A program made the position numbers and the translations under genes. A stretch of DNA of 64,000 nt, taken from the NCBI GenBank assembly GCA_020536535.1, contig JAHLWZ010000583.1:9922-73921 (forward strand). The letters are read 5' to 3'. Shown piece by piece: positions 49,082 through 59,629 of this stretch; the stretch's first letter is position 1; the number at the start of each line of letters is the position of its first letter. The stretch is from Pelomyxa schiedti (taxonomy: Eukaryota; Protista; Evosea). The notes beneath the pieces were generated by a model, which did no database searches, was not told the origin of the DNA, and saw only the letters and a program-made list of their open reading frames with translations.

Positions 49082-49904
49082 ATGGGTGCCTACAAGTACA
49101 TTTCGGAGTTGTGGAAGAGGAAACAGTGCGACATAATGCGCTTCCTTAGACGCATTCGATGCTGGGAGTTGAGGTCAGTTTAGTGTGTTTATATCACCTT
49201 AATATGCTTACGTGAGCGAAGACATTTGCCACGTGTTCACCGTGCACCACGCCCAACTCGCCCAGATCGCGCTAAGCGCCTGGGTTATCGCAAGAAGCAA
49301 GGATACGTTATCTACCGCACCAAGGTTAATTTCCCTTCCGTTGTACTTATTTTTTTTGTAAACCACTCTCTTTGCGCCATACAGGTTCGCCGTGGCGATC
49401 GCAAGAAGAACGTTCACAAGGGACGCCAATGCCGCAAACCGAAATACCAGGGTGTTCACAAGCACAAGTCTTCAATGAATTTACGCCGTGTGGCCGAAGG
49501 AAGAGTTGGCCACCGATGCAAGAATTTGCGAGTTTTGAATTCATACTGGATTGGCCAGGTTTCGCACTAATTACCACATACTCTAGCCATGTTCTTAATA
49601 TTTTTGTAGGATTCCACCTACAAATACTTCGAAGTTATCCTTGTTGATCCATTCCACCCCGCTATCCGCAACGATCCCAAGAGCCGCTGGATCTGCAACC
49701 CAGTCCACAAACACAGAGAACTTCACGGACTCACCGGTGCTGGAAAGGCCTACAGAGGATTGTACGGAAAGGGCCATTGCTTCAAGAAACAGAGGTACCC
49801 TCCCAAACCACTTATGACTCTTTTTCCTTACCGTATCCCACAGGCCATCCCGCCACGCTTCATGGCGCCGCCGCAACACTCTTTCACTCCGCAGATACCG
49901 TTAA
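49082..49904 (+). CDS. RPL15: 60S ribosomal protein L15 (eL15)
   Basis: [49 protein letters not shown]. Confidence 0.97.
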
Positions 49905-50337: not shown

Positions 50338-51768
50338 ATGGCATCGTCGTCATCACCCTCACCAACGAGCACGCGCACTACGTCGGCCGTCGGCGATTCG
50401 TCGGGCCAGCGCACCCACAATTCCAGCCCGCAACAGCAACAGCAACCGCAAAACACGGCAACCCCCGTGTGCGCCAACAACGGGCAGCAGCAGCAGCAGG
50501 CCGTAGCCAAGCATCCGGCGGCGGATGTCCTCGCCACGGCAGACACCAAGGCCACGGGCACGGGCACGGGCACGCCCCCGGTTGGCGTCGGGGAAGGCGG
50601 GCCCGTCGACCCGCCTCTGGCCAAGCGGTCCGAGTCGCCGTCGGCGAGTGCGATGGCGATGGCCATGATGCTGAGCGTGCCGCCCAAGAAGCGCAGGATG
50701 GACCTCATGCACCAGTACCCTGCCGCCATGGTGTCCATGCCCCCCATCATCAGGTCGACGTCCCCGGCTGTGTCTGCCTGCATGAGGCCCCCCACATCAT
50801 CATCACCAACATCAACATCTTCTACTGCTGCTAGTACCAGTGCGTGCACTACATCCGGTGAGTTGGCTGACATATGCAGCATTGTTACTTATCCTTTTTT
50901 GTTTTTGTTTTTTTCCCCTTCTCCACATGTGCAGGGTCAGGTACATCATCACCTGTGATGGAGGCTCGGCACCAGGCAGCGGATTCTAAGGAAGCTGATA
51001 GTTTGCATGCATCGCGGGCAAATAGGGTCAAGAATTCTACAAGTTCACCGGCTAGGGATTCCACCAAGAGCGGTGCCGGTTCTGATGGCAACGGAAAAGA
51101 GCCTCAACACAAGGAGGAACCTCCGGAAGGCAGTACATCGACATTCAGGGCTATATTCGACGACGACGAGGCTGAAGTGGATGACCTTCTATACTTTCCA
51201 AAGAGAAGAGGGTCTGTACCTTCGTAATTACCCTTCACAAAAAACAACCAACGGCTAAAGAGATAATCAACTAAATCCTTCCTAGAAATGGAGTTCTTCA
51301 GAGACAACAGAGGCAACAGCAGAGAGAACAATTGCAGCAGATGCAGATACTACAACATTCATCAGAGGACCAAGTCGAACCTGACCAGGATGGTGACCCG
51401 GAACAAGAAGAAACACAAGATGATGACAAGGACCAAGAAGAAGCAGAGCCGGCACATCAACGTTCTACCAAGAAACCGCCTTCTTCTACCAGAAAGTCCA
51501 TTGTTCAGAGCAACTCCAAAAAAGGTACTTCCCAAACCCTTTTCTTCACAATTTATCTCACCGGCAATCACTGAAAACAGGTCTATACACCTGCACAATG
51601 TGCGGAAAGAACAACATTCGGTACTATAGCACCCGCAAGGCCTGGTGTAAGACCTGCAAGGCGCCATTCCCACTTCCTGACCTTTCACTGTCACACCTAC
51701 ATCAACTGGCTGCAAGCAACACACCATCACCACCAGCAACAACATCCAAGTCAGCAGCCAAGCTCTAA
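50338..51768 (+). CDS. Low-complexity nuclear protein with a C-terminal CxxC...CxxC zinc-ribbon-like motif
   Basis: NLS-like PPKKRR; last exon YTCTMCGKNNIRYYSTRKAWCKTCKAPF. Confidence 0.6.
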
Positions 51769-51922
51769 GGGTGCTGATGATTCTACTTACATTGTAAAGT
51801 GTACATTCCAATTCGGTACAATACACAACAACAGCATTCTCTCTTCTTTTTTGCGTACATACAGTTGAATGGTTTCACACCAGTCAACAACAACACAACA
51901 AGGTAGGTTCTGGCAATACAAT

Positions 51923-52394
51923 TCAATCAATCCACGGTGCTCTGCAGTAAGGGCACGTGGGTGATTCACCAGCTGCCATTTGCTGAGACGTCCATTTGGC
52001 GATGCAATGCAGATGAAACCAATGCGTGCAGTTCTGGTTCTTTACTGGAAAAAAAAAGAAATTAGGGCATTAGATATATGAATATATATCTATGATTATA
52101 CCCGGGGGACAGGCTACGCCGGGGAACCTGCAATCGGAGCACGTGTCATCAAAAACACGCCGGCAGATGCTGCACGTGTTGTCCTCTTCGTCGTCCTCGT
52201 CCTCCTCGTCGGCTCTCATCGTATTGGTTGGTTCAGTTGTCGTGGGTTGGTGTGTGGATGTGTCGGTGTCCCATTGCCACGTCGCTGCCAGAGTCATCGA
52301 ACAAACTCCAATCTGTGTGAGCGCGTTAATGTCATAATTGCAGACATGACATGTGCTGTGGTGCGCACGCGTTGAGACCAACCTGCAGCGACAT
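51923..52394 (-). CDS. APC11: RING-H2 protein, APC11/RBX1 family
   Basis: ATWQW; CSICRRVFDDTCSDCRFPGVACP; CTHWFHLHCIAKW; CPYCRAPW. Confidence 0.88.
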
Positions 52395-52498
52395 GTGTGA
52401 CCCGAAGATCGTAGGTTTCGGCTCTGCTTTTTCCGGAAAAAAAAAGCGTTTTTACCGGAAGCGGAGGATGATGAAAAACAAAAAAAAAACCCAAACCA

Positions 52499-54840
52499 AT
52501 GAGCGGCCAGTCCAGCGACGAACACGACGCACAGCCAACTGCATCGACCAAACGACGACACCATGAGCAGCACTCAGGGGACGACCAAAACCACAGCGGC
52601 CTGAGACGAAGACGAGGGGGCCACGACCACAAGCACACCCCAACAACAACACCCACAACCACAACAACCGTGGGCGACCAAGACCAACCCGATGATGAGG
52701 ATGACGATGTGACAAACAACAAGCCCAGCCACCACGACCACGACCACGGCCACCACCACGACGGTGACCACAAGCACAACAGCAAGAGCAAGCGAACCCA
52801 CCACGACCACGACCACGACCACGACCACGGCAAGAAACCAAGGGACAAGGACAGCGACGCTGATGACGACGACGACGGCGAGGGCGACGACGACGGAGGG
52901 CACCGGACCGACGATGCCAAACGACCTCCAGCCGCCACGCCACCAATGGTGCCGGCAACAGGTTGGTTATTGTAGGGATATTGTGATGTGACTAACAGGG
53001 AAAAAAAAACACTGAAAGACATGAAACTGTACACGACAGAGGTTACCTTGGCGGAACTGATGAACGAAATGACGGAAGTAGTATTTCCGGAAGTAGTTAG
53101 ACAGAAATGGGGTGTAATGGTTGTGCACAATTTGCCACACACAGTTGTACTAATGCACTCCCAGACATTCACCGATGTCAAAGATTTCATAATGAAATCA
53201 CACGAACTATTTGGGAAATACTTGACAGGCCGGCTGCCCAAGGGGGTGACTGTCACGCAAGAACTCTGTACAGCACTTCACCTGAAAGTCCAATCTGTAA
53301 ATCAGGCTATTCCTGTGCACCAAGCACTCATTTGGTGCAAGGAAAATAATATGGAGTATTGCATGGAGCCATTTCTCAAGCACGATGTACCATGGAACAC
53401 ATTTTCCCATCTTACTCCCCCAAAGATTACCTTTTCAGTCATGAAGAGGCTTACATACGATGATTGCATGGAGATAGGGATGAAACTTGGGGATATTTTT
53501 AAATTTCAGGCCAATTTGGTGAATATTCAGATACCCATTGCTATCGACCCTTCAAAGAGCACCAAATATCTCCTCATCGAGAACTTGTCCTTCACACTTG
53601 ACAGGATTTCTGAAGAACTGAATAGCGTAAGTAGTCAATCTTCATTTTTTCCCCCTCCAACAGTCCCGCAGTTTCAGGCACGGATAACACTTAAATGCAG
53701 CTGGAACCCGGACATGCACCTCGGCCTTGGCGTGTCTAGATTTCTCGCTCCTGATCTTGTTTGGCACCCTGAGTACAAGTTCAAAAATCTTTCCTCTCCC
53801 ACGTCATGCACAATTTTGTCGCAGTACGTCTCCTCCTCTGAGTCTGGAGGGCTCAGGCATGAGGTTTCTACGGCAATAGTTTAATCTTTCTAATGAAATT
53901 TACAGATATCTTATGTGTGTGACTGCTATGAAACTTTTGAACTGGAAAGGTTCCCTCTGGATAGGCAGCTTCTGCATGTCCAATTTGGAGTACCTGTAAC
54001 CAAAGACCCGATAGTCATTGTTCATGACAAATGTGAAATCAAAGCCGGAAGGTTTGATGATGTCTTTCGTTTGTCTTTATAATGCCATTAGGTGTGCCAC
54101 AACTGAATGGGTACTCCATGCAGTACGGGTGGAAAAGCCAGGCCGCGAAAATGAAGTGACTGTTATTGGGGAAGCAGAGCGTAAGGATCAATATTATTTG
54201 TGGAATTGCATGATCCCATTGTTTCTCATCGTTTCGTACGTATTCCCTCCCATTACATCCGCACCTCACAAAGTTTCAGAATGGGTTTTGTTGTTTATGT
54301 GTTCAATGACCCATCCAAGTATGCTAAAAGAACGGAGATTTCTGCTGGAATTATTGCTACTATTGTCTTCTTCAAGTATGTGCTGATGTCAATTTGGTCA
54401 ATTTGCGTTCTAACCAGTGCTTGTTAGATTTGCCGTCGGAGCCGCTGTAACTCGCACACAGGCATAATTCCTGCCCAAATCCTTTTGCGAAAAATTCTAA
54501 AAACGCAAAACAGTATCTAACGCAGCTGGATTGGTACATACTGTCATCGTTCCTGGTGAGCTTCTTCCTGATCATTGGGCATTGTATATCACTGGGGCTG
54601 GTTGTCAACGGCAAATGGCAAGCCGCCCGCATCATAGACATTGTGGTGGGGTCACTACTGGCAGGGTTCTGGGGTGCATTGCACCTCACAATCCTCGTGT
54701 GTGAACCACTGTTCAAGGAGAAGTGGAGCTCCCTGGATGACATACAAAAGAACCTGGGCCTGGACCAGGTGCTAGCCAAGGGCACCTCCTTGAATGCCTC
54801 GAAAATCAATACCTCAAGAAGGGCTCGGTTCCGGAGCTAA
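52499..54840 (+). CDS. Cys-less (Pro-loop) pentameric ligand-gated ion channel subunit with N-terminal His/Asp-rich tract and SAM domain
   Basis: WHPEYKFKN; ETFELERFPLDRQLL; ERKDQYYLWNCMIP; M2 RTEISAGIIATIVFFK; M3 YLTQLDWY; SAM-like WCKENNMEYCMEPFLKHD-ITFSVMKRLTYDDCMEIGMKLGD. Confidence 0.78.
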
Positions 54841-56576: not shown

Positions 56577-57627
56577 TTAGCCTCTGGTTAGCCTCTCTGT
56601 CCTCTCCACTACATCTTTGTGGAGGTGGATCAAAAATCCTGGTTTATTTTTCCCATCAATGACCAGATCAGGAACTGTGACTGTGGCTCCCTGTTTGTGT
56701 AATGAGAGGTAATAGCACCAACAAAATGCGCACGAAATTGGCTCCATCCAGCATTCCTTGTACAATCCCAGCAACAAAATACTCGCAGCGCAAATTGTCT
56801 GCTCCAGAGATGTATCTAGTAACTAGCAAATTATCATCAACGATTGCATCTGGAAGAAATCAGGCCAGGAAAAAAAGAAACAGAACAAACACACACTCAT
56901 CGCTGTCGTAAATTTTCAAATTGCATTCACTATTCTTGCCGAAAAGTCTTTTCCAAACAGTGTAGGATATCCATTTCTTTTGTGAAGTTGTATTATTAGC
57001 CGGCTAATAACTAGGTGGATAGTGCACACCAGAATGTCCTCGTGAGTAAGTTCTCTCGTTAGCTTCTTGTCCCTATTGAAACTGGCAAGCTCCAGCATTC
57101 TTTTCCCTATCCCATAACCCACATCAGCCATCCTATAAGCCCCGTTAAAGTCCCCTCCCCATGAGGAAAGAAAAAATACATATCGCACAGCCACACACAC
57201 AAAACGAAAAACCTGCTCAAAATTTGTCAACGCTCAAATTCGCGGCAACGAACAACCCGTAGCAGGCAGCCACCAACAAAAATTTAGAGCACACGCACGA
57301 GCGCGCACGCACACACGCGCACACGTACCTCTGATGGAACGCTTCGCCGGTCTTGGACCTCCCCTTGTTGTACTGCACGACCTCGCTGAACAGCAGCGAC
57401 ATCGCGTTGAGCGACACCTCGGCGCCGGCCCACCCCCCCACGTCGCGGTCCAGCCCCCGGCCCCCCACCACCGCCACGCCCCCCCCGTACGACCCCGACG
57501 CCGACGCCGCGCACAGCGACGACGACGACGACGAAGGCGGCGACGGCACGGGGGGCTGCACCAGGCAGTACTGTGGCGTCGTGTGCCCCAGCCCAAGCTG
57601 CCGATCCAGTGCACCAACACTGCTCAT
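56577..57627 (-). CDS. TRAPPC5: TRAPP complex subunit 5 (Trs31)
   Basis: EVSLNAMSLLFSEVVQY; GYGIGKRMLEL; FVAGIVQGMLDGANF. Confidence 0.9.
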
Positions 57628-57724
57628 CGATGTGCTCGACATTGGCTCGGTTCACAGAATTGTTGTGTGACACACAATCACGGAGAACGGGCTTCTCTCT
57701 CTCTCATTTTTTTTTTTTTTACAT

Positions 57725-59386
57725 TTAGAGGCAGTCGTCGATGAGGGAGTACATGATGTTCTGGGTTTGGGTGATGCGGCCGGCCATATCATTTATTTGG
57801 TCGGCCATTTGGAGAATGTATCCGCTTGTTGTTACGATATCTTGGGCGAGATTGTCCATCTCTTCAAACATGTGCTTCATTATTTGTGTTTCGTCAATCA
57901 TGAAGGCCTTCATGGTTTCCAGAAACTCTATAAAGAGTTGTATCATACCCCCTTCCCTTGTTCCTTGTAATGTTGCTTGAATGTCCTTCAGGATTGTTGA
58001 TTCCATGAGACCCGGAAATGGCACCAGCTCCAGTACTTTTGTTGGAGTTATGGTTGGTAAGTTTTTAACTGCCATAGCTTCTATTGGTCCTTGATTCCTC
58101 TGGGTATACCTTAGACCCAGGTTGTTACAGAAGTCCTCTACAAAGGCCTGCATCATGCTCTCTGTGTACAGAATTTGCTCGGTCATGTCAGATATTTGTA
58201 GCCCCATTGCCAGAATAAGGTCCTCTTCCTGTAGGATCTCATCTGACATCTCTAGTACTTGGTCTATAACACCCTCCATGGCAACAGTGGTCTGGTTTGC
58301 CATCCACAGCATGCCGTCCATCATATATATCATGATATCTGCGCAAATCTCCATTGCACAACAAAATGGATTCCACCAAGTGTCACACGGGAAATCAGTG
58401 TGCAGTTGTGCACCGTTTTTCCATGTGGCAATAAGAAGCCTGTGCCGTATCTCTGCGAATCCCGCCACCTGTGCTTTGGAATGGCTCAGGACGGGTGCAC
58501 TCACTGCGACGATGTTCCTGATGTGTTGCCTCCCTCGGTTGACTGGGGGATAGAATGGTATACATTGATCAGGGATACTTGCTGAAATGATCTCCTGATC
58601 TCCGATCTTTGGATTAACAGTAATGTTAGGTTGCAGGGCTGTGCAACAAGTTGCTGCAGCCTCTTCGGCCATCTCCTCTGTTTCTACAATTGCATCAGCC
58701 ATCACTCCTATTTGAGAACTCATGTTCATTATATCAAACTCTGTGGCGATGATATCATTCCCAAGCTCTTCTACGCACTTGTCCATTTCCGAAAGGAGGG
58801 AAGTGACATCACTGCACAGCTCTGCAAACAAAGCAATGGAAGCGTTGATCACTTGGTTCATTTCCTCTATAGGAGCACAGTGATCGTACTTGAGGCGCTC
58901 GCCTGCTTCGGGAGGTTGATTCCCTTCAGTGCCTTCTCCTTTTCTTTCTCCAGTGGGCTAATGTTGTGTTACCAATTTCATAACGAAAAGTGAATGCAGT
59001 ACCATTTCCAATACACTTGGTTCTTGTTTCAGCGCCACCTGAATTCTTTGTGGGAGTACTGCGGTGCCATGGCAGAAAGGTACACAGGTTTTAGTGAGAT
59101 TGGCCAAGATTTCCTCTGTGTGCACGATCCTGTCGGCCATGTATCCAATCTGCTGGGCCTCCATCAGAATTAGCTGCTCAGTGCACATAATCCTATTAGC
59201 AAAAGAGTCCACAGAGTCAATGACTTGGTTCTCTAGTGCGGCCCACTCCTGCTCACAAGCCAGACACTCATCAAGAAACTGCTTGCACAAGTCCATGAAG
59301 TCGTCGATTTCATTCCCTGCGACAGGCACACCAACGCCATCTCCTCCCGAACCAAATACTAGTAAAGACAACACCAAGAGGTACAT
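57725..59386 (-). CDS. Secreted Met-rich helical protein with four internal repeats (IGxMADRIxxTE-like)
   Basis: Signal peptide MYLLVLSLLVFGSGG; four aligned repeats; one intron near 58940-58990. Confidence 0.7.
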
Positions 59387-59629
59387 GTAGCAAAAGAGCT
59401 TTTGGTTTTTTGTTTCGGTGGAATTTTTTTTTACCGAGAGTAGTGCCTTTCACCTTTGTTGTAAGTGGTACCGTGCCACCAATAGGTTCCAATTTCCAAT
59501 TCTACCATTGATTCTAAGAAACCAGCGACAATTGATTTCGAAATCAAACACTTGGAACGAAACGATAGGAGTAGACTGCTATGTGTTCGGAGACCGAGAG
59601 GGCATCGCCAGCCAGGAGAGGAACTGGAG

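Follow-up and report, generated by a model that had tools for sequence, protein, structure and literature searches.

The pentameric ligand-gated channels (pLGICs) that have been studied sense the cell exterior. Bacterial members carry a signal peptide, and the loop between the third and fourth transmembrane helices (M3–M4) is cytoplasmic in bacterial and animal channels alike (PMC549065, in its available text). Across the Pro-loop superfamily the proline of the Pro loop is the sole invariant residue (Table 1 of PMC4795631), and a proline in the M2–M3 loop (88%) and a leucine or phenylalanine at 9′ of M2 (88%) are typical of pLGICs, not invariant. The same paper (PMC4795631, Jaiteh et al. 2016) defines the eukaryotic Cys-less channels, discards their termini, leaves domain architecture as future work and states that no function is known for any protist Cys-less member; neither 'signal peptide' nor 'amoeb-' occurs in its text as available. 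Both this paper and PMC9874803, in their accessible parts, take the β-sandwich domain as extracellular. Here, we report that Pelo_7379 of Pelomyxa schiedti is a real, expressed, divergent Cys-less pLGIC that contains a true SAM domain and lacks a signal peptide. We propose, with a probability of roughly 0.6, that it is a SAM-fused subunit that sits inverted in the membrane, conducts ions and is gated from the cell interior.

The window, a stretch of 64,000 nt of P. schiedti DNA, carries the channel gene on its plus strand at 52499–54840, in ten exons and nine introns, from the ATG at 52499 to the TAA at 54838–54840. The ten-exon translation of 641 residues is a letter-for-letter match to P0001 (hypothetical protein Pelo_7379, Pelomyxa schiedti, 641 residues). 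The features of the locus are as follows.

51923–52394, minus strand: neighbouring gene for APC11 (RING-H2), arranged head to head with that of the channel (Pfam zf-ANAPC11 above cut-off on two exons)
52499–52961, plus strand: exon 1, with the start codon and the disordered His/Asp-rich tract, residues 1–154, no hydrophobic segment
53019–53119, plus strand: exon 2, start of the poorly conserved helical pre-SAM region (predicted, flanking introns unbridged by RNA; agrees with P0001)
53165–53386, plus strand: exon 3, helices ahead of SAM, then the beginning of the SAM domain (spliced RNA contig)
53306–53533, plus strand: SAM domain, residues 236–298, split by the intron 53387–53425
53426–53626, plus strand: exon 4, end of the SAM domain, linker and β1–β2 of the β-sandwich (RNA)
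53564–54185, plus strand: pLGIC β-sandwich ('ligand-binding') domain, residues 309–473, exons 4–7
53672–53863, plus strand: exon 5 (RNA)
53906–54051, plus strand: exon 6, with the Pro-loop FPLD at 53951–53962 (RNA)
54092–54235, plus strand: exon 7, with β9 W448, pre-M1 R472 and the first part of M1 (RNA)
54280–54375, plus strand: exon 8, end of M1, M1–M2 loop and M2 with 0′ R507, 2′ E509, 9′ A516 and 13′ F520 (RNA)
54428–54461, plus strand: exon 9, 34 nt, end of M2 with 16′ F523 and M2–M3 loop with T530; a GC–AG intron follows (RNA)
54514–54840, plus strand: exon 10, M3, short M3–M4 loop, M4, 46-residue C-terminal tail and stop (RNA)

Contigs from two RNA runs of a single sample in a single study bridge seven of the nine introns (53387–53425, 53627–53671, 53864–53905, 54052–54091, 54236–54279, 54376–54427 and 54462–54513); the last is of the GC–AG type and is supported by contigs of both runs. 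The joints of the bridged introns are absent from the DNA runs. The channel coding sequence is spliced and expressed from residue 189 onward: the spliced RNA contig begins at 53164, and the first 188 codons are without RNA bridging. Introns 52962–53018 and 53120–53164 come from frame logic, in which the 641-residue model is one among 19 open combinations, and the 5′ part of the gene model is an agreement between two predictions, frame logic and P0001, not RNA proof. Exon 1 is covered by one unspliced contig of 151 nt (52743–52893); contig coverage has gaps at 51800–52609 and 52934–53149, where absence of a contig is no proof. By eye, the window also holds exons at 49100–49900 (plus strand) that we take to encode a ribosomal protein L15-like product, a presumed TRAPP subunit-like gene at 56600–57650 (minus strand), and two related helical open reading frames with a repeated motif at 57725–59390 (minus strand).

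An earlier, sequence-only reading of the locus had named a Cys-less pLGIC, and motifs, sequence matches and structural matches by Foldseek and VIA agree with it. Pelo_7379 is a β-sandwich followed by four hydrophobic (transmembrane) helices. Its Pro loop, FELERFPLDRQ, places F409-P410-L411-D412 in the [F/Y]PxD pattern, with E402 and L416 at the Cys-loop positions and no Cys-x13-Cys disulfide loop; because of these two residues we do not file the protein among strict Cys-loop receptors. Also present from the conserved core defined in PMC4795631 are β9 W448, pre-M1 R472 and M1 P484, together with the basic 0′ R507, and the four helices, Pro loop, pre-M1 motif and replaced proline of the first reading are all present in the sequence. 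The best sequence matches are sTeLIC (E = 6e-12), DeCLIC (1e-10) and GLIC (8e-8). The channel region comprises residues 298–600; against pLGICs, the best Foldseek E value of the predicted model is 1.6e-20, and the best VIA match of the channel part has Z 23.8 and rmsd 3.1 over 306 aligned residues. Pfam gave no Neur_chan match, word-index protein searches found Pelo_7379 itself alone or six proteins, and a single-protein GTDB scan gave no match. An Atlas search reached a best score of 0.84, which we treat as a lead only, and no match for the SAM part.

The SAM-like domain of the first reading proved to be a five-helix SAM fold in the predicted structure (residues 236–298, pLDDT 80–90). VIA matched it to the SAM domain of SARM1 (Z 10.9, rmsd 1.9, 66 aligned), followed by DGK-delta (Z 10.5), Scm/Sfmbt (10.4) and tankyrase (10.0). 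With a separate SAM model built from seven paralogs, the top 30 rows were all SAM domains (best Z 9.1, rmsd 2.2, 65 aligned); Foldseek returned no match at E ≤ 0.001 for the SAM model, its top rows being nearly all SAM entries. A PDB profile search with the SAM part reached E 0.018, and Pfam SAM_1 scored Pelo_7379 at E 0.022 (15.5 bits against a cut-off of 23), while paralog P0002 clears both Pfam SAM cut-offs (SAM_1 and SAM_2). Structural matching gave nothing clear for the preceding helices (residues 160–235), and no second SAM domain was demonstrated there.

A profile search returned 1285 relatives at E ≤ 0.001, and the comparisons below use the best 150 of these. After Pelo_7379 itself, six of the top seven matches among these 150 are P. 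schiedti paralogs; paralogs were collected from protein searches, and their count is a lower bound. At least six paralogs have a SAM-like block directly before β1 and a hydrophilic N terminus, none with a signal-like start, and their identity to Pelo_7379 is at most 37%. The neighbouring group among the best 150 contains four more named P. schiedti genes together with Pelomyxa sp. and Mastigella proteins. In this second archamoebal group (P0014, P0019, P0026, P0055, P0058 and P0142) the SAM-like stretch has no Pfam match and weak profile support, its score being 16.1 where 30 shuffles reach at most 11.2; a single origin of all archamoebal members has support of 90/87 and was not starred. A second SAM–pLGIC, in Amorphochlora, passes the Pfam cut-offs and appears in both genome and transcript records. 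In P0005 (Pelo_15316) an LRR–Roc–COR–kinase (Roco) protein is joined to a SAM–pLGIC in one model of 2310 residues. Two genes may have been merged in the model, as it appears, or the fusion may be genuine, in which case it would be an argument for a cytosolic β-sandwich. The C terminus of P0002 has an additional hydrophobic stretch by eye, which may be a fifth helix or an error of the model.

Four proteins, P0009 (Prorocentrum), P0010, P0012 and P0022 (Symbiodinium), each contain five complete pLGIC units, spaced at about 350 residues, behind a long soluble N terminus with no signal peptide. In the tree the units of the four proteins group by repeat position, one clade to each position (support 99–100), and the chains are likely to be natural one-chain pentamers, as judged from their repeats. 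P0007, P0023 and P0090 are three-unit and two-unit tandem chains, possibly fragments or another concatemer family.

The paralogs share an unusual pore. We number M2 from the sTeLIC alignment, with the prime numbering of GLIC in part as we presume it to run. The M2–M3 proline had been read as replaced, and T530 does stand in its place (AAVTRTQY against SDLPRLGY in sTeLIC); the 9′ position holds A516, not Leu or Phe. Both departures recur in 7/7 paralogs, with alanine in four, serine in two and glycine in one at 9′; the 23′ proline is absent from all seven, the P0005 model having an insertion there that is likely to be a retained intron. Constant in 7/7 are 0′ Arg, 13′ Phe, 15′ Lys and 16′ Phe, as are FPxD, the β9 Trp, the pre-M1 Arg and the M1 Pro. 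Among the best 150 of 1285, by comparison, the other eukaryote-type units keep 9′ Leu in 67/85, 13′ Ala in 56/85 and the 23′ proline in 83/85, and the bacterial units in 63/76, 68/76 and 75/76, respectively. What is new here is a set of seven paralogs without the M2–M3 proline, in which 9′ Leu and 13′ Ala are replaced by a small residue and Phe. Because the pattern is conserved in 7/7 at no more than 37% identity, it suggests that the gate moved towards the β-sandwich side, not that the pore decayed; the loss of the M2–M3 proline and 9′ Leu may nevertheless mean that gating is altered or lost. Glutamate at 2′, found in 4/7, is a weak hint of cation preference.

No hydrophobic segment lies ahead of M1: the 19-residue hydropathy maximum is 0.99 before M1 and −0.33 in the first 155 residues, and the signal peptide typical of studied pLGICs is absent, as the first reading had claimed. 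Because nothing ahead of M1 is hydrophobic, the choice of an internal start is irrelevant to the question. An in-frame stop lies 9 codons upstream of ATG 52499, and the APC11 ATG, at its predicted position, is about 104 nt from the channel ATG, which therefore leaves no room for an upstream signal exon. Such an exon had been named beforehand as the observation that would speak against the reading; with APC11 bounding the space, none of the 34 plus-strand ATGs in 51762–53200 opens a frame usable as a signal. ATG 52167 opens the one strongly hydrophobic frame, which we discarded because it runs antisense to acidic codons of APC11. The gap of about 104 nt between the two start codons contains repeated CCGGAA motifs and is likely a compact bidirectional promoter.

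Residues 1–155 contain 24 His and 34 Asp and are predicted to be disordered. The suggestion that this tract senses metal or pH found no support, and we rejected metal gating: the tract is absent from the paralogs (His 1–8%, against 15% in Pelo_7379), it varies in length (in-frame 12- and 3-nt deletions in DNA run X4), and the next gene has a similarly His-rich start. The tract reads as ordinary low-complexity sequence.

To place the missing signal peptide in context, we extracted 168 channel units; 149 of the best 150 relatives contributed, the remaining one having no FPxD anchor. Among these, 76 members form a bacterial clade (SH-like support 100; 100/99 on a 47-row subset), and its GTDB relatives are bacterial in 80/80 loci kept (of 262). 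For 28 of the 73 other proteins we examined the name or source, which marks 21 as eukaryotic and 0 as prokaryotic. Pelo_7379 nests among these eukaryote-type Cys-less sequences, outside the bacterial clade (100/99). By a hydropathy heuristic, applied after dropping incomplete-looking proteins (15 bacterial-clade and 27 eukaryote-type), a signal-like N terminus occurs in 53/61 bacterial-clade proteins versus 5/46 eukaryote-type proteins (54/61 versus 3/44 with an alternative filter), and in 69/71 closed GTDB bacterial genes. Transcript open reading frames labelled complete (P0011, P0031 and P0043) are likewise without a signal. The missing signal peptide is a mark of the wider eukaryotic Cys-less group, not of Pelomyxa or of the SAM fusion.

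The same two clades differ in charge. The net charge of the M3–M4 loop is +2.33 in the bacterial clade (64 positive and 2 negative of 76), +2.28 in the GTDB control (67 positive and 2 negative of 71) and −2.27 in eukaryote-type single-unit proteins (4 positive and 52 negative of 63, counted after removal of repeats and of units whose M1 or M4 did not align). Eukaryote-type proteins have a basic tail after M4, where bacterial ones have almost no tail to count. The flip is confined to the M3–M4 loop and C-terminal tail, the M1–M2 loop being acidic and the M2–M3 loop basic in both clades; net charge, as opposed to K+R, fails to separate the two sides in the bacterial clade (mean +0.38). Eukaryote-type β-sandwiches have no excess of glycosylation sequons (57 observed versus 62.3 expected in 87 units). 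Cysteine is about nine times as frequent in them as in bacterial ones (2.06 versus 0.24 per 100 residues), scattered and with no bias to even numbers (34 odd, 39 even and 4 zero of 77). Positive residues favour the inside and negative residues the outside (PMC5525207, as available), folded N-terminal domains force an N-cytosolic topology, and translocated N-tails without a signal are mostly shorter than 40–50 residues (PMC6269167 and PMC13261788, in the parts accessible). Because of these rules, the reversed M3–M4 charge, the lack of sequon excess and the unpaired-looking cysteines are what a flipped orientation predicts. With two clades only, bacterial and eukaryote-type, the comparison counts as one evolutionary contrast.

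The inverted topology that the sequence-only reading had proposed gains from the crowded upstream space, the paralogs, the group-wide loss of the signal and the reversed M3–M4 charge, which strengthen it without turning it into an observation. Probably, to judge from these sequence features, the 'extracellular' domain of Pelo_7379 is cytosolic, although the protein's own charge bias is weak and less clear than in any other member of its family: its M3–M4 loop is +1 and its overall K+R bias no more than +1. Of the scored paralogs, 6/6 lean the same way with flanks of 12 and 16 residues and 5/6 with 8 (P0002 unscored). Its M1 flanks, with 2 basic and 3 acidic residues before and 3 basic and 2 acidic after, by themselves favour the normal, N-out orientation, in which the N-terminal 470 residues would cross by an unusual route, without a cleavable signal. 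Two sequons in its β-sandwich (N315 and N368, one of them at a site where bacteria likewise have Asn) point the same way, and topology rules are not fully predictive (PMC6269167, in part). The SAM domain of STIM1, moreover, is ER-luminal (PMC11127010, as far as available), so a SAM domain alone is no proof of a cytosolic location. The shortness of nearly all translocated signal-less N-tails speaks against such a crossing, as do the charge, sequon and cysteine patterns of the group, and we consider it quite improbable. STIM1 itself carries a signal peptide, which also counts against it. Very improbable is a gene-model artefact, in which a missed 5′ exon or another start would restore a signal peptide and an ordinary Cys-less pLGIC. 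No RNA contig joins exons 1 and 2 to the rest, and the apparent merger of P0005 with a Roco kinase gene suggests that gene models of this genome are fallible; against this stand the upstream stop, the nearness of APC11 and the lack of a usable hydrophobic frame, and the same miss would be needed in seven paralogs and in the complete transcript reading frames of other protists.

An inverted protein need not be a gated one: it could be a degenerate, closed or leak-type subunit, or a SAM scaffold with a drifted pore and coupling loop. The 23′ proline missing from all seven paralogs, kept almost throughout both comparison sets, is what such drift would leave; small residues at 9′ with Phe at 13′ and 16′ could plug the pore, and the seven-paralog subfamily sits on a long stem branch. 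We nevertheless regard this as unlikely, as the invariant FPxD, Trp, Arg and Pro and the fixed 0′, 13′, 15′ and 16′ residues at ≤ 37% identity look like selection on pore and coupling interface.

Under the preferred reading, of an inverted and gated channel, M1 would be the first membrane-insertion signal of Pelo_7379, by the rules of membrane insertion. A folded N terminus of 470 residues would not be translocatable behind M1 and would stay in the cytosol with the SAM domain and β-sandwich, placing the M1–M2 and M3–M4 loops in the lumen or outside and the C-terminal tail in the cytosol. By homology, the subunit would form a pentamer, alone or with paralogs, that keeps the Pro-loop/pre-M1 Arg coupling; more speculatively, two rings of Phe, at 13′ and at 16′, may have taken over the gate from 9′, and a ring of 2′ Glu may favour cations. 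A putative SAM ring above the vestibule could engage other channels or SAM partners and so serve in clustering, retention or gating, and the ligand would most plausibly be a cytosolic ion, metabolite or protein. In P0006 and P0008 the M3–M4 loop is acidic and longer, and each contains a glycosylation sequon, not quite at the same site in the two; were they inverted, these sequons would lie on the predicted luminal side, in loops that may be too short for glycosylation. Only tentatively would we extend the proposal to a large signal-less branch of eukaryotic microbes with a cytosolic sensor, SAM-coupled in Archamoebae (at least 11 named P. schiedti genes), where the subfamily of Pelo_7379 would have a 13′/16′ Phe gate, a lost M2–M3 proline and opening or clustering through SAM–SAM contacts, a form of gating by protein assembly inside the cell, and built as five-subunit chains in dinoflagellates.

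Our literature search found no inverted, SAM-fused or naturally concatenated pLGIC, and supplements and subscription papers may bear on the point. In PMC9874803, PMC11085791, PMC13174522 and an octopus preprint (10.1101/2025.04.02.646353), as far as their text is available, the domain is extracellular or its side is unaddressed; PMC13174522 describes signal-peptide prediction on 231 molluscan Cys-less sequences, and the accessible parts of PMC9607081 and 10.64898/2026.01.07.698087 hold nothing decisive. A natural inverted branch, if real, would mean that the fold gates under opposite lipid, charge and redox sidedness. It would explain how eukaryotes fold this domain with no Cys-loop disulfide, which PMC4795631 (as available) leaves unanswered, and why such orphan channels may ignore bath-applied ligands; assays of Cys-less channels in protists, perhaps also in molluscs and flatworms, would then call for cytosolic ligands and inside-out patches. 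With the M2–M3 proline naturally missing and the gate presumably shifted, the paralogs also offer a ready test of the coupling mechanism.

Among known systems, animal Cys-loop receptors (GABA-A, GluCl and nAChR) share the fold of Pelo_7379 (VIA Z 22–24 over about 300 residues), which in contrast to them has no disulfide, signal peptide or large M3–M4 domain and is 10–18% identical. The eukaryotic Cys-less 'Pro-loop receptors' of protists and invertebrates (PMC4795631; schistosome clade, PMC9874803) have the same superfamily signature, and may not be the same clade as our eukaryote-type set; the SAM fusion, lost 23′ proline and altered pore are not described in the available text of either paper. 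Closest by sequence and Foldseek are sTeLIC (6fvq/6fl9), DeCLIC (6v4a) and GLIC, which like Pelo_7379 have a Cys-less Pro loop and a short M3–M4 loop. In the alignment sTeLIC has an acidic residue at the 2′ position of E509, and DeCLIC too has an extra N-terminal domain (PMC9897478, in part). Unlike Pelo_7379, bacterial pLGICs have a basic M3–M4 loop, almost no C-terminal tail, 9′ Leu, 13′ Ala and 23′ Pro, and the domains known to be fused to them are periplasmic sensors (PBP-I, MCP-N and Cache), not SAM. For how a SAM domain might work on such a protein, the comparison is SMSr/SAMD8, an enzyme with an unrelated membrane fold for whose SAM domain that of DGK-delta is the model: it is a multipass membrane protein whose N-terminal SAM domain self-assembles and sets localization (PMC5264588, as available), and by fair analogy the SAM domain of Pelo_7379 may polymerize as well.
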